Source of the DNA: a virus
Lineage: Duplodnaviria > Heunggongvirae > Uroviricota > Caudoviricetes
DNA length: 34,194 bases
Strand: one strand, 5' to 3'
Virus record (IMG/VR): IMGVR_UViG_2541047826_000010
The notes under the pieces were generated by a model. The model was not told the DNA's origin. It worked only from the letters and a program-made list of their open reading frames with translations, and made no database searches. Both the position numbers and the translations under genes were made by a program. This document shows, in pieces, positions 6,084 to 28,973 of this stretch. Numbering within the stretch: position 1 is the stretch's first letter; every line of letters starts with the position of its first letter.

Positions 6084-7853
6084 TCAGTTGCCGTTAACAA
6101 TGCTGATAACACTGCTGCTGGCCGGTGTGGTCAGCGTGGCCATGACTTCATCCAGTGCGGCTTCCGGTACGCCGTCCGGGTACTGTGCCGTTAACTGGCG
6201 GTAATGTTCCGGCGTCCAGGTAAGGCCGTCGGCGCTGAACTTATCGCGCAGGGCTTTCGCGGCCTCCACATGAGTCATGGGACGTTGTTCAGTGCGCGGC
6301 CCGCGTACGTCAGAGGCCTGACCACGCTTCGGCATATAGGCCGGAAGTGTGGTGTCGTCGATATGTTTATACGGGTCAAGCCGCCCGCCGAACGGCAGCG
6401 CCTTCGCCTTGCGTGCGGCGGCTGCATCTGCGGCGTTGTCTGTACCGGTAACCAGCGCTTCGGTTTCTTTTGCCGCCATCTGTGCCGGGGTTTCCGGCAG
6501 GGCTTTGTAACTTTCGCCAAATACCGCCGCGCCTTCAGCAAAGCCAAACTCGTTCTTTCTGACCTCTTCGACCAGGAAGAACGTCTCGTGGCCGTCCTCA
6601 CCGGTCAGAACCACCTGTGCCACATCGCTGCGCCATGGGTTACGGGTAATCATCAGTTTTTCACCAACCAGTACGCCCGGTACCGTTGATACGTCAAATT
6701 CAGTGCCCCGGAACGAGACACGAAGTTTTGGCGTGACTTTGCGGAGTTCTGGTGCCGCCACAGCCAGTTCATGACATACCTCAACGGAAGGCGCTTTTTT
6801 CAGCTGCTCAGCAGTAATCTTCAGCCAGATATCCGTGCGGGTTTTACCGTGGCGGCTGTGAACAGCCGTGGCGTTAAAGTGGCTGCGCCATTTCGCGGCC
6901 AGCGCGTTGAGTTCTTCCAGACTGTGAACCGGCCGGAACTTCAGACCCGGCTCCAGCTTGCGTTCGATAATGTCTCGCGCCTTTTCCACCTGTCCGGTGG
7001 CGCGGGCGTTATGCGGCTTGTGCGCTATCAGGTCGATGCCCAGTGAGCGGCACATGTTTTTCGTCATACCCGCGGTGTTTGCCGAGCCGGGGTCGAGATA
7101 GAGTATTTTTGGCACGCCGTGCAGCACGTCTGCGCCGCCACGCTCCTGCATGGCGTTGATAAGCACAGAACACAGGTTCTCACCTGATTCCGCGCCCGTC
7201 ACATACTCAACGTAAATCCAGCCGCTGGCATGGTCGGTAATCTCGTAACTCCACACGCGGTCACTGGCGATACGGGCAAGGTTAGCGGGCTTGTTCTTGT
7301 AGAACTTCGCGCTGTCCATCACCTGCAGCCCTTTATGTCCATTGCTCAGGTAGTAAAGCGTGCAGAGTGAGGCGTCAATCTGCCAGACATGATTGGGGTG
7401 CAGACTGGCCACTTCGGTATGCGGTGCAGGAGCATCCAGTTGTTCCGGGTGCAGGCCATAGTTACGCAGAGCACGGCTGATGGCATCTTCAGACAACGGG
7501 AAAAACTCACCGGTGGTTTCATCTGTTCTGCCTGCGGTGATAAAGCCGTTAGCCCGCAGGGTTTCCACTGCATCTGCGATGGAATAGAGGCGCTTACCGT
7601 TCTTGCGGGTGGCCTCACGCAGTGTGGCAGATATCAGCGCGGCTTCGTCGCGGGTCAGGGCGCTGCGTCCGGCATCAGCGCGTTTTTTGCGTTTATCAGT
7701 CACAGAGACCTCCTTCAGCCTGCGCAGCAGAGTGGCGCGGGACATGCCAAGTTCAGCACAGGCAGCGTCGTATATTGCACCGCGTTTACCATGCCCCGCG
7801 TCACGTGCCGCGCGGGCGACATAAACCAGTCGTTCAGTCAGGGCAGCATTCAT
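6084..7853 (-). CDS. DDE (rve-type) transposase, MuA functional analogue
   Basis: 589 aa. N-terminal HTH. Catalytic-core signatures HVWQIDASL, YLDPGSANT and, 36 residues later, GQVEKA give the D, D, x35-36, E pattern. SD GGAGG. Confidence 0.9.
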   Translation of the reverse strand: MNAALTERLVYVARAARDAGHGKRGAIYDAACAELGMSRATLLRRLKEVSVTDKRKKRADAGRSALTRDEAALISATLREATRKNGKRLYSIADAVETLRANGFITAGRTDETTGEFFPLSEDAISRALRNYGLHPEQLDAPAPHTEVASLHPNHVWQIDASLCTLYYLSNGHKGLQVMDSAKFYKNKPANLARIASDRVWSYEITDHASGWIYVEYVTGAESGENLCSVLINAMQERGGADVLHGVPKILYLDPGSANTAGMTKNMCRSLGIDLIAHKPHNARATGQVEKARDIIERKLEPGLKFRPVHSLEELNALAAKWRSHFNATAVHSRHGKTRTDIWLKITAEQLKKAPSVEVCHELAVAAPELRKVTPKLRVSFRGTEFDVSTVPGVLVGEKLMITRNPWRSDVAQVVLTGEDGHETFFLVEEVRKNEFGFAEGAAVFGESYKALPETPAQMAAKETEALVTGTDNAADAAAARKAKALPFGGRLDPYKHIDDTTLPAYMPKRGQASDVRGPRTEQRPMTHVEAAKALRDKFSADGLTWTPEHYRQLTAQYPDGVPEAALDEVMATLTTPASSSVISIVNGN

Positions 7854-22958: not shown

Positions 22959-23209
22959 TGAAAGAATACCGCTATTCCGGCCCGGCCAGCGGCGTCACGC
23001 TGTCGGACGGAACCGAAATCCTGCTCTGGCCGGGGAAGACGGTTTCCCTGCCGGAGGAGCATGACTACGTGAAGGTACTGGTGGCGCTGAAACATCTGAC
23101 GCCGGTACCTGAAGAGACTAAACCCGCCGGCACACCGGCTGTGCAGTCACCAAAGCGCAGAAGCAGCAGTGACAGCGAAGTGAAAACGGAGGACACCCAT
23201 GGCAGCTAA
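22958..23209 (+). CDS. small late protein (Mu gp38-like position)
   Basis: 83 aa from the ATG at 22958, with a TGATG overlap and GAGGAA 8 nt upstream. A GTG at 22955 is an alternative start. Confidence 0.5.
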   Translation: MKEYRYSGPASGVTLSDGTEILLWPGKTVSLPEEHDYVKVLVALKHLTPVPEETKPAGTPAVQSPKRRSSSDSEVKTEDTHGS

Positions 23210-24626
23210 CTATCTGCATGGTCCCGAAACCATTGAGGTGGAAAACGGAGCCCGCCCGGTTAAAACGGTGAAATCTGCCGTTATTGGCCTGATTGGTACC
23301 GCCCCGATGGGGGATGTCAATACGCTGGTACAGTGCCTGTCTGAGAAAGACGCAGCGGCATTTGGCAGCCAGTTCACCGGCTTTACCATTCCGCAGGCGC
23401 TGGATGCGATTTATGACCATGGTGCAGGTACCGTTCTGGTCATTAACGTCCTCGACCCGGCGAAACATAAAACGGCGATCGAGGATGAGGTGGTTACCTT
23501 TGACAAATCGACAGGGCAGGCCAGACTGGCGCATCCGGTTGTCGCTAATGTGGTGGTGAAAAACAGTGAAGGCAGCACCACCCACACGGCGAACACGGAC
23601 TACCGTGTTGATGCGCAGGCGGGTGTGCTCACGAACCTGGGCAAGGCTATTGAGGCCGGTGGCAGCGTGAAGGTGAGCTATGAGTACGCGGACCCGTCGA
23701 AGGTGACTGCGGCGGACATCATCGGCGGGGTGAATAGCGCCGGAAACCGAACTGGCATGAAGCTGCTTAACGACAGCTTCAACCTGTACGGCTATTTCGC
23801 CAAAATTCTGATTGCGCCGGTGTTCTGCACCCAGAAGAGTGTCGCAGTTGAGCTTATCGCCATGGCAGAGAAGCTGGGCGCGGTAACCTACATTGATGCG
23901 CCTGTCGGTACCACCTTTGCACAGGCTCTGGCAGGTCGTGGCCCGGAAGGCACCATCAACTTCAATACCAGCTCCGACCGCGTCCGTCTGTGCTATCCGC
24001 ATGTGAAGGTATATGACCCGGTGACAAACACAGAGCGTCTGGAGCCGCTCAGCCAGCGTGCAGCAGGTCTGCGTGCCAGAGTCGATCTGGACAAGGGCTA
24101 CTGGTGGTCATCCTCCAATCAGGAGATTCTGGGGATCACCGGCGTGGAGCGCCAGCTGTCCGCGATGATTGATGACCCGCAGAGTGAGGTGAACCTGCTT
24201 AACGAACAGGGGATCACCACGGTATTCAGCAGTTACGGCAGCGGCCTTCGTCTGTGGGGTAACCGGACGGCAGCATGGCCAACGGTCACCCATATGCGTA
24301 ACTTTGAGAACGTTCGCCGCACCGGTGATGTGATCAACGAGTCCATTCGTTATTTCAGCCAGCAGTACATCGACATGCCGATTACTCAGGCGCTGATTGA
24401 TGCACTGACGGAGTCGGTCAACGCCTACGGTCGCAAAATGACTGGTGATGGTGCGGTACTGGGCTTCCGTTGCTGGTTTGATCCGGCCCGCAATCCGGAG
24501 ACGGAGCTGGCCGCCGGGCACCTGTTGCTGAGCTACAAATATACGCCACCACCGCCGCTGGAGCGACTGACGTTTGAGACTGAGATCACCTCGGAATACC
24601 TGTTAACCCTGAAAGGGGGCAACTGA
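23199..24626 (+). CDS. contractile tail sheath protein
   Basis: 475 aa. The N-terminus ANYLHGPETIEVENGARPVKTVKSAVIGLIGTAP is typical of P2 FI / Mu L sheaths. Followed by the tube gene. Confidence 0.9.
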   Translation: MAANYLHGPETIEVENGARPVKTVKSAVIGLIGTAPMGDVNTLVQCLSEKDAAAFGSQFTGFTIPQALDAIYDHGAGTVLVINVLDPAKHKTAIEDEVVTFDKSTGQARLAHPVVANVVVKNSEGSTTHTANTDYRVDAQAGVLTNLGKAIEAGGSVKVSYEYADPSKVTAADIIGGVNSAGNRTGMKLLNDSFNLYGYFAKILIAPVFCTQKSVAVELIAMAEKLGAVTYIDAPVGTTFAQALAGRGPEGTINFNTSSDRVRLCYPHVKVYDPVTNTERLEPLSQRAAGLRARVDLDKGYWWSSSNQEILGITGVERQLSAMIDDPQSEVNLLNEQGITTVFSSYGSGLRLWGNRTAAWPTVTHMRNFENVRRTGDVINESIRYFSQQYIDMPITQALIDALTESVNAYGRKMTGDGAVLGFRCWFDPARNPETELAAGHLLLSYKYTPPPPLERLTFETEITSEYLLTLKGGN

Positions 24627-25147
24627 TGTCAAAGATTGAGATAAACCGCATCACGAATGCCAACATCTATCTGGATGGTACTAACCTGCTGGGACGGGCT
24701 GAGGAAGTTAAACTCCCCGATGTCTCCATGATTATGCAGGAACACAAGGCGCTGGGGATGGTGGGTAAGGTGGAACTCCCGGCTGGTTTTGACAAACTGG
24801 AAGGCGAAATCAAATGGAACAGCTTTTACCGCGATGCGATGCTGTCTGCCGCGAACCCGTACAGGTCGCTGGCACTGCAGTGTCGTTCCAGCGTCCAGCG
24901 CTACAGCTCGCAGGGGCTGATTGACGAAATCCCGCTGGTCACCTTCCTGACGATTATGTTCAAGAAGAACCCGCTGGGGACGTTCAAACAGCACGAGAAC
25001 GCCGAGTTCTCCAGTAGCTTCACCTGCACGTATATCAGACAGGTACTGGATGGTGAAGAGCTGCTGCAACTGGACTATCTGGCCAACATCTTCCGGGTCG
25101 GCGGTGTTGATCAACTGACTGACTACCGTATCAATATCGGGGGCTGA
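24626..25147 (+). CDS. tail tube protein (P2 FII-like)
   Basis: 173 aa. ITNANIYLDGTNLLGRAEEVKLPD... matches the pattern of the P2 tube family. Confidence 0.85.
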   Translation: MSKIEINRITNANIYLDGTNLLGRAEEVKLPDVSMIMQEHKALGMVGKVELPAGFDKLEGEIKWNSFYRDAMLSAANPYRSLALQCRSSVQRYSSQGLIDEIPLVTFLTIMFKKNPLGTFKQHENAEFSSSFTCTYIRQVLDGEELLQLDYLANIFRVGGVDQLTDYRINIGG

Positions 25148-25149
25148 CG

Positions 25150-25431
25150 GTGAGTGTTGAACTGACGGATAAAGGAGGACGATGTGCGGCACTGGGCATG
25201 TCAAATGGTACGTGGTTTACCCTCCTTGATATTCCGGGGGTGGAAACCCTTTTTAATACCCGTAAAACCAATGACCCGATTGACTGCACACGTTCAAAGG
25301 CCCGCAAACTGGCGGATTTGATTGAAGCATGGGAGCCTCCCGACCACTGGTTCTCCGGCATCGGCAAATCTGAGGGAAAGACGCTTCTCATCGCTTTCCT
25401 GCGTAACTGCAAGGGGTTTCGCACTTGCTGA
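25150..25431 (+). CDS. hypothetical protein inserted between the tube and chaperone genes (moron-like)
   Basis: 93 aa. GTG start 2 nt after the tube stop. I recognise no family. Followed by its own hairpin terminator. Confidence 0.5.
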   Translation: MSVELTDKGGRCAALGMSNGTWFTLLDIPGVETLFNTRKTNDPIDCTRSKARKLADLIEAWEPPDHWFSGIGKSEGKTLLIAFLRNCKGFRTC

Positions 25432-25437
25432 CATCAC

Positions 25438-25462
25438 AGGGGCTCCGGCCCCTTCTTCTTAA
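25438..25462 (+). terminator. hairpin AGGGGC-TCCG-GCCCCT followed by a T-rich run
   Basis: 6-bp GC-rich stem and 4-nt loop, then TCTTCTTAATCTCCTTT. Begins 7 nt after the stop at 25431. Confidence 0.5.
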
Positions 25463-25476
25463 TCTCCTTTAATATC
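25458..25476 (+). promoter_or_regulatory. late-promoter motif copy 3 (CTTAA-N5-TTTAATATC), upstream of the tail chaperone gene
   Basis: -10-like TAATAT lies at 25470-25475. The 22-nt window 25455-25476 matches 31806-31827 at 20 of 22 positions. It ends 52 nt before the ATG at 25529. Confidence 0.45.
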
Positions 25477-25528
25477 CGTCACGCGCTTCTCCCGACATAC
25501 TGCCCTGAACTTACACAGGAGCACAATC

Positions 25529-25864
25529 ATGTCACAGACCCCATCCGATACTTTTAAATTGTCTTATCCCTTCACCACTGCTGCAGGCACCAGAATTGAG
25601 CTGGTTGAACTGAAACGCCTGACGGTAAAAGACCTGAAGCAGGTGCGCAAAATCAGCAAAAACCCGGCAGACTGGGACGAACCGCTGATTGCCCGCAGTA
25701 CTGGTCTTCTCCCGGAAGATCTCGACAATATGGATCTGGCTGATTACCTGCAGTTACAGAAACGATTTCAGCTCATCACGGGGATGGGTGAGAGCAACCA
25801 GGGCGCTGACGCAGGCGCAGGGGCTGCTGGCGAGATGGTTCCGGTTTCAGCCGGGGGAGATTGA
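25529..25864 (+). CDS. tail assembly chaperone (P2 gpE-like)
   Basis: 111 aa. Lies between the tube and tape-measure genes. An overlapping downstream-frame ORF is present. Confidence 0.75.
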   Translation: MSQTPSDTFKLSYPFTTAAGTRIELVELKRLTVKDLKQVRKISKNPADWDEPLIARSTGLLPEDLDNMDLADYLQLQKRFQLITGMGESNQGADAGAGAAGEMVPVSAGGD

Positions 25865-25946
25865 TGCCCTCGATACTGACGATCTGGAGATGTGGCTGGA
25901 GCAGGCTGAAGAGCAAATAAAAAGCGAGTACGGCGACAAATCATAG
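25529..25946 (+). CDS. frameshifted tail chaperone (E+E'-like fusion; shift into the +1 frame around 25820-25824)
   Basis: ORF 25689..25946 is offset +1 from 25529. Its C-terminal part WFRFQPGEIDALDTDDLEMWLEQAEEQ aligns with the FHWxPSE...L..W.E.A signature I recall for the GpE (E') family. A GGGG run lies at 25820-25823. Confidence 0.55.
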
Positions 25947-25951
25947 TACAG

Positions 25952-25972
25952 ACAGCCGCCAGTAGCGGCTGT
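25952..25972 (+). terminator. stem-loop ACAGCCGC-CAGTA-GCGGCTGT after the E' stop (weak terminator or mRNA stabiliser)
   Basis: Perfect 8-bp stem. The downstream tract TCTGCGTT is only weakly T-rich. Confidence 0.3.
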
Positions 25973-26021
25973 TCTGCGTTATCCCCTCACGTCTTTTCAC
26001 CTTCCCCGGAGGTTAACCACT

Positions 26022-28973
26022 ATGTCGGGACAGTTTTCAGTCGGCGTTGTTATCGGCGGGATGATTGGTAGCACATTCCGTTCTGCAATGAGCGGTACCC
26101 GCCGTGCGCTTGATTCCCTGAGCGATACCTCACGCCGCCTGCAGGAACGTCAGAACGCTTTAACCCGTGCAACAGAACGTTATGGTCAACTGGGTTCTTC
26201 CCGGATGCAGCATCTCAACAGCGAGCTGCTGCGGGTAAGCCGCACCATGGAGCAAATTGAGCGCCAGCAGCGCCGTCTGTCAGCGGCATCCGCTACCAGT
26301 GATGCGCTGAAAGCTAACCGCATGGCGCTGTATGGTCAGGGGATTGAAGCGTATGGCATGGCACAGACTGTTTATCATACGGTTTCCCCTGCCGTTCAGC
26401 AGTCCATGTCTTTTCAGGACAAAATGATTGATATGTCGATCACCGCAAAATATGACAATAAAACGCGGGATGCACTTGCCGGACAGATAAAAGGCTGGGC
26501 GCTTAAATACAATCAGTATCAGGATGAGCTGCAGGAGGCGGTGGGTTCACTCATCAGCGACAATATTGATAATGTGTCAGATATCGGTTTTCTGATGCCG
26601 GATATTGCCCGCGCGGCAACGGCAACACGCACGTCTGCTCAGGACTGGGCAAAAGTGGCCGCAGTCTGGCAAAACTCCCTGAAAGGTGCGGCCAGAGATT
26701 TTGGTGCCGTTCAGAATATTATGGCTTATGCCGGTGACCAGGGGTCATTTGAAATCCCGGATCAGGTCAAGTGGATGCAGTCCCTGGCCCCAATGATGGC
26801 GGGTATTGCCAGTGGAAAAGAGGCTGTTGCTGAAATCGGGGCCAGTCTCCAGATAGCAAAAATCGGTGCAGGTTCCACCGACGAAGCAGCCAATAATTTT
26901 AAAAACTTTCTTACCAAAATTTTTGCCCGCGATACTCAGAAACAGTTTGCTGATCTGGGTATTGATTTGCAGGGATCTATTGCGAGTTATAAAGCTGCGG
27001 GGATCTCTCCGATTGAAGGGATGTTGAGTGTTATAGAACGTTACCTCAATGCCAAAAGCCCCGAAGCGCTGGCCGGCTTCAAATCAGCCATGAAAATAAA
27101 GAATGATACGGCAAGAGATGAGGCACTTCAGGCTCTGGCGAAAAACTTTGGTCTGGGCGATATGTTCGCGGATATGCAGGTCATGGCATTTATCCGCCCG
27201 ATGCTGGCCAACATGGACAGATATCGAGAGATCCGTGCCGGTGCTCTCAGGGCTGCGGATAACGATTTGCTTGCCAGTGCTTATGATCAGCGGCTGAAAT
27301 CTCCCCTTGAAGCCACTAAAGCACTTATGGTCAGCAGTCGTGATCTGGCAATTACGCTGGGCGATCAATTAGCTCCATCTTTTATTTCTCTGACTCAGGA
27401 ACTGCTTCCACTCATTCAGGGGGCAAAACACTGGGTAGCGACTCACCCGCAATTTGTCAGTGGGGCTTTTAAGCTCATCAGTGCGCTCCTTGCGATTAAG
27501 ATAGCGACTGTTGGTCTCAAACTGGGGCTGAATCTCCTTATTTCCCCCTTTGTAAGTGTCTGGAAAAATGCTGTTTTACTTCGGGCCAACTGGCTTCGTC
27601 TGTCGCTCGCACTGGGGCAAGGCGGTAAGCTCCGCTGGCTGGTGACCGGATTTAGCGCCGTCGCCAAAGGAGCCAGAACACTGAGTGGCGTGCTCTCCGG
27701 GGGGCTGGTTCGCGGAATTATGCTCGCCGGACGTGCTGTTCTCTGGATTGGACGTGCGCTGATGATGAATCCCATCGGTCTCGTTATCACCGCTGTCGCG
27801 GCAGCAGCTTACCTTATCTACCGCAACTGGGGGGCAGTCAGTGGCTGGTTTAAACAGCGCTGGGCAGACATTCAGGAAGCCTTTAACGGCGGCATTGTGG
27901 GAATTGGTAAGTTGCTGATTAACTGGTCGCCGGCAGGCCTGCTCTATAAAGCCTTTGCGGCTGCGCTGAAATATTTCGGCGTTGCTCTGCCGGCAAAGTT
28001 CACCGACTTCGGTGGCCATCTTATCGACGGTCTGATTAACGGTATCAAAAACAAATGGGGGTCGCTCAAATCCAGTGTAACCGGAATGGGTGACAGCATC
28101 AGTAGCTGGTTTAAACAGTGCTGGGCTGACATTCAGGAAGCCTTTAACGGCGGTATCGCGGGAACTGGTAAGCTGCTGATTAACTGGTCGCCGGCAGGTC
28201 TGCTCTATAAAGCCTTTGCAGCTGCGCTGAAATATCTTGGTGTTGATCTGCCGGCAAAGTTCACCGACTTCGGTGGCCATCTTGTCGACGGTCTGATTAA
28301 CGGTATCAAAAACAAATGGGAGTCGCTCAAATCCAGTGTAACCGGAATGGGTGACAGCATCAGTGGCTGGTTCAGCGAAAAGCTGGGCATTCATTCGCCG
28401 AGCCGCGTGTTTATGGGCTTTGGTGACAATATCGCGCAGGGGGCCGCCATTGGCCTGCAGCGGACCACTCCGCTTGCAGCTCTGGCCGGGCAGCGAATGG
28501 CCAGTGAACTGCTCCCCAAAATGCCCGTGAGCATTCAGGGGCCAGAAATACGGGATAACACTTCAGGTGTTCGCTTCAGTATGCCGTTGCCCGATATCAA
28601 TGGGTTTATGTCGTCTGCTAAAAATGCGATCGGAGCCGTAATCAATAGTTTGTCTTCCATGCCCGCTATTCCGCTCTCCACCCGGGCATCGATTTTACCA
28701 GGGCAACGTCTGGCAAATGAGATGACACCGGATGTTCCCCGTATCCCCTCGCCTGAAATCCTGGCTGCCGGATATTCAGGCCGTGGTGCAGCTGCAACCG
28801 GCGGTGGAACGTCTGGTGGTATCCAGGTCAGCTTTAATCCTCAGTTTTTCCTCAATGGCAGGGAAACCACAGCGCCTGCCGGACTGACTGGCGCCCTGAA
28901 TATGAGCCTGCATGAGCTGGAAAAAATGCTGGAGCGTCTGCTGGCTCAGAAACAACGTAAGGAGTACCGCTGA
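26022..28973 (+). CDS. tail tape measure protein
   Basis: 983 aa. Position after the chaperone pair. Long helical and hydrophobic central region. SD GGAGG. Confidence 0.9.
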   Translation: MSGQFSVGVVIGGMIGSTFRSAMSGTRRALDSLSDTSRRLQERQNALTRATERYGQLGSSRMQHLNSELLRVSRTMEQIERQQRRLSAASATSDALKANRMALYGQGIEAYGMAQTVYHTVSPAVQQSMSFQDKMIDMSITAKYDNKTRDALAGQIKGWALKYNQYQDELQEAVGSLISDNIDNVSDIGFLMPDIARAATATRTSAQDWAKVAAVWQNSLKGAARDFGAVQNIMAYAGDQGSFEIPDQVKWMQSLAPMMAGIASGKEAVAEIGASLQIAKIGAGSTDEAANNFKNFLTKIFARDTQKQFADLGIDLQGSIASYKAAGISPIEGMLSVIERYLNAKSPEALAGFKSAMKIKNDTARDEALQALAKNFGLGDMFADMQVMAFIRPMLANMDRYREIRAGALRAADNDLLASAYDQRLKSPLEATKALMVSSRDLAITLGDQLAPSFISLTQELLPLIQGAKHWVATHPQFVSGAFKLISALLAIKIATVGLKLGLNLLISPFVSVWKNAVLLRANWLRLSLALGQGGKLRWLVTGFSAVAKGARTLSGVLSGGLVRGIMLAGRAVLWIGRALMMNPIGLVITAVAAAAYLIYRNWGAVSGWFKQRWADIQEAFNGGIVGIGKLLINWSPAGLLYKAFAAALKYFGVALPAKFTDFGGHLIDGLINGIKNKWGSLKSSVTGMGDSISSWFKQCWADIQEAFNGGIAGTGKLLINWSPAGLLYKAFAAALKYLGVDLPAKFTDFGGHLVDGLINGIKNKWESLKSSVTGMGDSISGWFSEKLGIHSPSRVFMGFGDNIAQGAAIGLQRTTPLAALAGQRMASELLPKMPVSIQGPEIRDNTSGVRFSMPLPDINGFMSSAKNAIGAVINSLSSMPAIPLSTRASILPGQRLANEMTPDVPRIPSPEILAAGYSGRGAAATGGGTSGGIQVSFNPQFFLNGRETTAPAGLTGALNMSLHELEKMLERLLAQKQRKEYR
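27846..28367 (+). repeat. in-frame tandem duplication, 2 x 261 bp (87 aa), inside the tape-measure gene
   Basis: Copy 1 is 27846-28106 and copy 2 is 28107-28367. My hand alignment gives about 16 mismatches in 261 nt and 8 of 87 aa differences. Both copies begin WFKQ(R/C)WADIQEAFNGG. Confidence 0.9.

Follow-up and report, generated by a model that had tools for sequence, protein, structure and literature searches.

[quoted passage not shown]

The window analysed here, a stretch of viral DNA of 34,194 nucleotides, carries the probable tail assembly chaperone recoding site of a BcepMu-like prophage in which a Mu-type head is combined with a P2-type tail. A short chaperone ORF is overlapped in the +1 frame by a segment resembling the E' extension of phage P2, and comparison with relatives revealed that this geometry is conserved, that selection passes from one frame to the other within the overlap, and that the cassette CGA_TTT_C is conserved at the nucleotide level where this change occurs. 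The long form of the chaperone is probably produced by a +1 slip of tRNA(Phe) at UUU_C; from these comparisons we infer the ribosomal shift at this codon as well as its efficiency, the role of CGA and the functions of the two proteins.

This region shares 99.7% identity with Escherichia phage PhiKM, which is classified in Bcepmuvirus, and 641 of the 5426 complete E. coli genomes (about 12%), including strain EC958 (ST131), carry it. The tail module contains, in this order, the genes for the sheath (23199-24626), the tail tube (24626-25147, + strand; P2 FII type, Pfam PF04985, E 2.9e-53), a 93-aa ORF without known function, the TAC_7 chaperone, the tape-measure protein (26022-28973, + strand; PF10145, E 2e-20, with the same label in PhiKM and in RefSeq), gpU and tail protein X. 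The chaperone ORF (25529-25864, + strand) encodes 111 aa and is the analogue of P2 gpE and Mu gp41. Over residues 8-81, it was assigned to Pfam PF10109 (Phage_TAC_7, 'tail assembly chaperone E, or 41 or 14') with 74.8 bits and an E value of 5.5e-21, above the gathering threshold of 25 bits, and it also matched phrog_166 ('tail protein', E 2.8e-32). As in frameshift pairs of the lambda G/GT type, this ORF sits between the tube gene, the product of which is the presumed partner of the E' domain, and the tape-measure gene, which encodes the presumed client of the chaperone.

The second ORF (25689-25946) starts 160 nt (3x53+1) after the first and lies consequently in the +1 frame, equivalently -2, with respect to it, so that the ORF coordinates bear out both the starts and the offset given in the initial annotation of this DNA. 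Both ORFs overlap over 25689-25864, and the +1 frame is open from 25689 to 25946. It translates as ...LLARWFRFQPGEIDALDTDDLEMWLEQAEEQIK..., and the E' analogue proper, predicted to be read only after a shift, would comprise 58 codons plus a TAG stop (25770-25946, + strand; SSSRGWVRATRALTQAQGLLARWFRFQPGEIDALDTDDLEMWLEQAEEQIKSEYGDKS). The signature FHWxPSE...L..W.E.A, which had been given for P2 E', was essentially right, as the P2 sequence reads ...VIFHWPPSEL..L.EL..W.EKA, and a profile of the fusion aligned with P2 gpE+E' over 126 columns (hhalign probability 91.6%, E 8e-7). When compared with Pfam PF06528 (Phage_P2_GpE), the segment scored below the gathering threshold of 23 bits (18.4 bits for the fusion and 16.9 for E' alone, E 1.6e-3 to 4.5e-3), and the raw +1 ORF had no PF06528 match in Pfam at E<=0.01. 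Despite this sub-threshold score, a remote homology of the fusion to P2 E+E' is supported by the profile alignment. A fusion of 138 aa had been anticipated and is indeed obtained for any +1 shift within the overlap, the P2 fusion being of 142 aa.

Regarding other databases, the E' segment matched a PHROGs family of its own, phrog_8286, of unknown function (E 2.7e-34), and PGAP occasionally annotates 25788-25946 in RefSeq as a separate 'GpE family phage tail protein' (WP_001202894) in some genomes. NCBIfam contained no family for E, E' or the fusion, and a PDB sequence search with the fusion profile returned nothing meaningful (best E 0.54). The reported absence of an A- or T-run heptamer from the overlap was reproduced by a scan, in which neither A/T runs of four or more nor a usable in-frame X_XXY_YYZ heptamer were found.

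The +1 geometry was detected by a motif scan in 117 of 124 close loci, which come from many Enterobacterales and viral contigs; three further close loci (L028-L030) were assigned to it by inspection, and three of the 124 are mutated or truncated copies. The same arrangement was present in 79 of 80 distant loci, all of them viral contigs, and is kept in about 160 unique relatives overall. Further examples are a Ralstonia phage, a Pseudomonas phage, a Salmonella prophage and BcepMu, in which gp42 starts 256 nt (3x85+1) past the start of gp41. In a Pasteurella phage relative and in P2, E' lies in the -1 frame, so the family holds both geometries. Thus, the claim that E' is reached in the +1 frame, unlike in P2 with its -1 shift at TTTTTTG, holds across the whole clade.

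A sequencing error of 1 nt restoring the -1 geometry had been put forward as a possible refutation. None of 634 complete E. coli genomes had an indel in the run of five Gs that precedes the frame-0 stop (G5 run, 25853-25857, + strand) and, as the geometry is in addition conserved, it is neither a sequencing artefact nor the result of chance, which excludes this possibility. Database proteins of 138 aa encoded in a single frame (P0001-P0008, P0067) were considered as natural fusions and rejected, because their junctions are scattered between the G5 run, a point near 25800 and positions far upstream. In P0002-P0007, the junction is at the G5 run, from which one G is deleted. Given this scatter, and the presence of the G4 form in 0 of the 634 genomes, these database fusions look like indel errors or mutants.

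Stop codons in the relatives bound both frames, and because of this the shift would be confined to an interval of approximately 25758-25787, provided that the site is homologous across the clade. At the 5' side, a +1-frame stop ends 8 nt before the Phe80 codon TTT in several loci (L043, L044, L145 and others, Ralstonia and Pseudomonas included), and in L008 such a stop is found 14 nt before it. At the 3' side, a frame-0 stop begins 18-21 nt after TTT in L154, L142 and L042, and at the same distance in BcepMu-type contigs; in L042, from Crenobacter, frame 0 ends 21 nt past the Phe80 codon. Other relatives close frame 0 further downstream, at the equivalent of 25811 in Symbiopectobacterium/Arsenophonus loci (L036, L038, L041) and with a TAG at the equivalent of window position 25841 in KP12-type relatives. 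In E. coli itself, the variant C25799T converts frame-0 Gln91 into TAG and is silent in the +1 frame (ACC>ACT). This variant is carried by 6 complete genomes and 914 contigs; one such prophage is otherwise identical to the window over 211 aligned bases, and the 90-aa product (P0022) shares 99% identity with the query where the two align. The initial annotation was right in placing the shift upstream of about 25836, but this limit was far too loose, as the comparative data put it upstream of about 25787.

Selection on each frame was assayed as pN/pS in 67 ungapped unique sequences, with codons numbered relative to Phe80. Over codons -60 to -1, the values were 0.25 for frame 0 and 1.24 for the +1 frame, over codons +1 to +12 they came to 0.7 and 0.5, respectively, and downstream they were inverted, with 1.62 for frame 0 vs. 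0.18 for the +1 frame over codons +13 to +24, where the run of four Gs is located, and 1.36 vs. 0.31 over codons +33 to +57. Purifying selection is seen on both frames. Per-column entropy revealed a flip of the wobble phase from frame 0 to the +1 frame just after Phe80, and Trp86 of the +1 frame (TGG, 25785-25787) was invariant in 67 of 67 sequences, while the frame-0 codon that overlaps it varied between ATG, CTG, GTG and TTG. Taken together, the entropy flip, the pN/pS values and Trp86 argue that the frame-0 tail ...GADAGAGAAGEMVPVSAGGD is a by-product of the constraint on the +1 frame and not a selected peptide; frame-0 selection appears to be limited to about the first 85-90 residues of the 111-aa chaperone.

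Within the stop-bounded interval, frame 0 contains three homotriplet codons, AAA_C (25760), TTT_C (TTT at 25766-25768, C at 25769) and GGG_A (25781), and TTT_C is the sole conserved one among the slip-capable elements of this interval. Here a pyrimidine follows an in-frame UUU and the downstream sequence is open in the +1 frame; the element belongs to the proposed shift cassette CGA_UUU_C (25763-25769, + strand; Arg79, Phe80, then C). TTT plus C was found in 84 of 84 unique close sequences and was preceded by the rare codon CGA in 81 of them, counts that come from phylogenetically related sequences and not from independent trials. Elsewhere in the E genes, Phe is encoded by TTT and TTC in a ratio of 87:78 and 23 of the 344 Arg codons are CGA; for another invariant Phe, that of the ARWF motif, TTT was counted 43 times and TTC 24. 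As the Phe80 residue is itself conserved in the chaperone domain, only the choice of its codon and the C that follows count as nucleotide-level evidence. The residue after Phe80 differs between relatives (Gln, His, Arg, Leu), whereas the first base of its codon is always C, so conservation is exerted here at the nucleotide and not at the amino acid level. By conservation and stop bounds, CGA_UUU_C is thus the best-supported site, and it displaces the slip site at a G run that had been proposed initially.

A similar preference was detected in the GC-rich distant relatives (mean GC 0.60), with TTTC in 71 of 78 unique sequences vs. a TTT background of 30%; the cassette of BcepMu reads TCC_TTT_CGC. 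In contrast, CGA was found 5' of TTT in 1 of the 78 unique distant relatives, with GTG, GCC, TCC or other codons in its place, whereas it is fixed in the enterobacterial and Ralstonia branch. Six unique Pseudomonas-type contigs have TTG_C at the homologous codon with the E' frame intact, and no evident alternative slip site was found in these six; either UUU has exceptions at this site or a different mechanism operates in these phages. In the window, the 7-mer CGATTTC was found 4 times vs. 4.4 expected and is not enriched, so that single-sequence statistics carry no weight and the argument rests on conservation.

With respect to putative stimulators, the frame-0 codon after UUU in the window is CAG, which is not rare, and there is no obvious ribosome pause. 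When 15 diverse sequences were folded together with RNAalifold, no consensus pairs were obtained downstream, the fold of the corresponding window sequence had a z of -1.6, and Rfam returned nothing at E<=1 for 25500-26050. The proposed shift falls where the Pfam chaperone domain ends (residue 81), and in the hhalign alignment Phe80 is within about 5 aligned residues of the P2 slip site GFL (GGT TTT TTG).

A +1 shift at some other point of the interval is unlikely, although AAA_C, GGG_A and an out-of-frame A-site option are all located inside it. In the latter, Ty3-like variant, Phe-tRNA would take UUC while tRNA-Arg(ICG) stays unslipped on CGA in the P site, giving the same protein; the presence of CGA in nearly all the close sequences speaks for it, and the relatives with TTG_C manage without UUU. 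However, AAA is replaced in relatives by ACC, GAG, CAA, GGC, CGT or AAG, and GGG at 25781 by GGT, GGC or GGA, and the single CGA among the 78 distant sequences stands against the Ty3-like option.

Independent translation of E' without any frameshift, beginning at the GTG at 25788 or another internal start, is improbable. It would agree with the separate RefSeq CDS of some genomes and with the maintenance of phrog_8286 as a family of its own, but among 67 unique relatives a start codon occupies the position of this GTG in 19%, the best start column (25809) reaches 54% and is ACG in the window, and no +1 codon column of these relatives has a conserved start. Moreover, conservation of the +1 frame begins upstream of 25788, with Trp86, and the homologous P2 E' is made by frameshifting only.

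As -2 and +1 shifts lead to the same frame, a -2 shift as in Mu, in tandem on GG_GGG_CGA, was also considered, together with transcriptional slippage at a G run. Mu is a documented precedent in a related chaperone family (PMC3458567; annotated in AF083977), and database 'fusions' one G short in the G5 run do exist. Nevertheless, both are very unlikely, since the allowed interval contains neither GG_GGG_CGA nor any context for -2 re-pairing (from TTT, -2 leads to GAT), and the G runs are of 4-5 nt, not conserved and outside this interval, with the G4 form of the G5 run missing from all the complete genomes assayed. None of the G runs at 25780, 25820 and 25853 is followed by CGA. The G5 run was rejected as a shift site because the KP12-type relatives stop frame 0 upstream of it (25841).

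The site favoured in the initial annotation was a GCA-GGG-GCT context, where tRNA-Gly would slip +1 on GGG_G with the junction ...GADAGAG/LLARWF.... The four Gs are present at 25820-25823 (+ strand), form a frame-0 homotriplet capable of perfect +1 re-pairing and are found in most close E. coli and Klebsiella-type relatives, but they are not a conserved shift site, and a slip there is scarcely credible: with the +1 geometry unchanged, the loci of Pectobacterium and Lonsdalea have GGC here and those of Photorhabdus and Xenorhabdus either AGC or GGC, distant relatives that also share this geometry lack a counterpart, the site falls downstream of the frame-0 stop in L036, L038, L041, L042, many BcepMu-type loci and C25799T E. 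coli, and it is embedded in a stretch already under +1 constraint (pN/pS 0.18 vs. 1.62 for frame 0), with the invariant Trp86 upstream.

Under the preferred model, the slip of tRNA(Phe) at UUU_C, most ribosomes would stay in frame over 25529-25864 and produce the short chaperone, the E analogue, whereas a minority, expected to amount to a few percent, would slip +1 with peptidyl-tRNA(Phe) on UUU (25766-25768), re-pair to UUC (25767-25769) and read AGC (25770) and the following codons in the +1 frame down to the TAG at 25944-25946. Re-pairing from UUU is possible for +1 only (UUC), as -2 gives GAU. The predicted fusion consists of 80 + 58 = 138 aa and would be the E+E' analogue, with the junction ...YLQLQKRF|SSSRGWVRATRALTQAQGLLARWF..., i.e. 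...LQKRF|SSSRGW..., continuing as SSSRGWVRATRALTQAQGLLARWFRFQPGEIDALDTDDLEMWLEQAEEQIKSEYGDKS; the longer stretch predicted around the junction is ...LQLQKRFSSSRGW.

CGA is decoded by tRNA-Arg(ICG) via I:A wobble. Due to this weak pairing, the rare codon probably helps as a weakly held E-site codon, and such a role is consistent with the fixed CGA before UUU in the enterobacterial and Ralstonia branch; downstream RNA structure is seemingly not involved. Judging from lambda G/GT and P2 E/E+E', binding of the tape-measure protein would fall to the N-terminal domain common to both forms and recruitment of the tube protein to the C-terminal domain encoded in the +1 frame, and the short and long forms would be made in a fixed ratio.

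On a broader scale, we lean towards the view that a widespread clade of P2-type tail modules uses a stimulator-free +1 shift on a bare UUU_C, with the direction flipped at a site homologous to that of P2 and with CGA as an enterobacterial E-site enhancer. This clade would comprise BcepMu-like phages and prophages of Enterobacterales, Burkholderia, Pseudomonas, Ralstonia and Crenobacter. If true, this would be a third recoding mode within one chaperone family, after the -1 of P2 and the -2 of Mu, with the same two-product outcome. We know of no description of a clade-wide use of UUU_Y in tail chaperones, and no paper on a +1 shift in BcepMu-like chaperones was found in open-access text. The shift is non-canonical, as initially claimed, relative to P2, but not as a category, because -2 (Mu) and +1 chaperone shifts have been published (PMC5009743, PMC10274946). 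Thus, the +1 chaperone shift is already known as such, and it is its occurrence at UUU_C in BcepMu-like phages that appears to be unrecognised.

The current annotations reflect this situation. The GenBank record of BcepMu names gp42/gp43 as the G/T pair and so assigns the frameshift pair to the wrong genes, the records of PhiKM and KP12 annotate the short ORF alone, and the E' ORF is labelled 'hypothetical', given as a separate 'GpE family' CDS or left out, the last two by PGAP. If the model is true, BcepMu gp41/gp42/gp43 and hundreds of E. coli genomes would receive a corrected annotation. Chaperone frameshifting is among the most conserved cases of phage recoding, and its +1 sites are hard to spot and mostly unannotated; a minimal (CGA_)UUU_C signal, bounded to about 30 nt, would give annotators a rule for the family. 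The site would also be a natural system for the study of stimulator-free +1 slippage at UUU_Y and of inosine-read CGA in the E site and, with the prophage in such a proportion of complete E. coli genomes, its gene models matter for prophage and tailocin engineering.

When compared with known systems, the pair resembles lambda G/GT, for which a conserved chaperone frameshift is established (Xu et al. 2004, as quoted in PMC3458567, PMC2628397 and PMC5009743). In both cases two products, in the window predicted ones, begin with a common N-terminus, would be produced in a fixed ratio and come from genes that directly precede the tape-measure gene, and the gene position, an overlapping ORF without a start of its own and a conserved slippery sequence, here TTT_C, were all found in the window. 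In contrast, lambda G/T has no detectable sequence relation to this pair, and both the slip motif and the phage group differ.

P2 is closer. It reportedly produces gpE and gpE+E' by a programmed -1 frameshift at TTTTTTG, and an E/E+E' frameshift is annotated in its record AF063097. As in the window, E is located between the tube (FII) and tape-measure (T) genes and carries a PF10109 N-terminal domain followed by a GpE-like extension, of 56 aa in P2 and 58 aa in the window, within fusions of 142 and 138 aa, respectively. P2 also slips on a Phe codon, no more than about 5 aligned residues from Phe80. However, P2 shifts -1 on T6G, whereas the window has E' in the +1 frame and a bare UUU_C after CGA, without any T run or T6G heptamer.

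In Mu, gp41 is extended (Mu_56) by a verified -2 frameshift on GG_GGG_CGA (Xu, Hendrix & Duda 2004, as quoted in PMC3458567). Mu and the window have in common a chaperone of the 'E, or 41 or 14' Pfam type, an extension in the +1 (= -2) frame and a rare CGA in the cassette. Unlike in the window, the Mu slip is a tandem -2, with CGA in the A site and the G run near the end of a longer protein (144 aa); the window lacks GG_GGG_CGA or any G run at the site, its CGA is 5' of the slip codon, and +1 alone permits re-pairing. More generally, -1, -2 or +1 shifts are used by different tailed phages, with +1 in the haloarchaeal HSTV-2, according to the review PMC5009743, and 350 'forward' chaperone shifts are found in the SEA-PHAGES annotations of actinobacteriophages (PMC10274946).

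The slip codon itself finds its closest parallels in genes unrelated to tail chaperones. According to PMC5009743, UUU_Ynn is prone to +1 shifting in bacteria, and the sites of this type include the argI error site of E. coli, an apparent site in YopN-TyeA of Yersinia and UCC_UUU_CGU in PA-X of influenza A; such sites need neither a stop codon nor RNA structure, their efficiency is modulated by the 5' (E-site) codon, and weaker E-site pairing favours +1 shifting at RF2. The argI, YopN-TyeA and PA-X sites share with the window a UUU followed by a pyrimidine, on which tRNA-Phe re-pairs from UUU to UUC, and the TCC_TTT_CGC of BcepMu is nearly identical to the UCC_UUU_CGU of PA-X.

A natural C to T change at position 25799 creates a frame-0 TAG in the tail chaperone gene, cutting E, its frame-0 product, to 90 aa, while remaining silent in the +1 frame that encodes the E' extension. 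Of 591 complete E. coli genomes, 6 carry this variant; the corresponding protein cluster was found on 914 contigs. Its existence shows that E can do without its final 21 frame-0 residues.

A further group of database proteins (P0002-P0007, 138-194 aa) has E and E' joined in frame, as if the G5 run at 25853-25857, located just before the frame-0 stop, had lost one G. These entries come mostly from Logan assemblies, and a search of 634 complete E. coli genomes did not detect the form with one G deleted. These database fusions are probably homopolymer errors. Separately, three of the related loci appear to be mutated copies: one from Erwinia tracheiphila (L016) carries an in-frame E-E' fusion at the G5 run, one from Apirhabdus apintestini (L031) is fused in frame 5 codons 5' of the TTT of the proposed shift site and a third (L025) is truncated after 26 codons. 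These three are likely to be decaying prophages or assembly errors.

At the codon homologous to that TTT, six unique Pseudomonas-type viral contigs (L193, L196, L198, L200, L203 and L208; region about 1000-1400) have GTG_TTG_CGG in place of GTG_TTT_CGG. In all six, the +1-frame E' is intact and conserved, and no alternative slip site was evident in them.

The chaperone gene is flanked by two hairpins. The first (25438-25463) is terminator-like: a T-rich tail comes after the GC hairpin AGGGGC-TCCG-GCCCCT. It lies within the tail operon, immediately 5' of the chaperone gene. The second (25949-25976), positioned after the E' stop and before the tape-measure gene begins, is strong (dG of -18.1 kcal/mol, z of -4.2), with equal stability reached in none of 200 shuffles, and its stem is kept in KP12 and Phi06_2974B, in which the loop differs. 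Lacking a clean T run, this element may serve attenuation, processing or stability rather than act as a terminator.

Within the tape-measure gene itself, an in-frame tandem duplication of a 261-nt unit (87 aa) was observed at 27838-28359, its two copies (27838-28098 and 28099-28359) being 94% identical. The gene spans 2952 nt in the window compared to 2466 nt in the KP12 relative, and a longer tape measure would imply a longer tail. The record of the closely related phage PhiKM contains a sequencing gap within this gene.

BcepMu (AY539836) carries TCC_TTT_CGC at the homologous Phe. In the annotation of its region 6603-7364, gp42 is equated with 'lambda G', and gp43 is given as the slippage product of gp42. 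The gp42 frame is instead the +1-frame E' extension of gp41, and the annotation of BcepMu, which is the type phage of its genus, seems to be wrong. Finally, a 93-aa ORF (25150-25431) is placed between the tube and chaperone genes, matching phrog_1239, of unknown function (E of 4.7e-48), and DUF7739 at sub-threshold level only. This ORF is conserved among relatives. In P2, no gene occupies the corresponding position.
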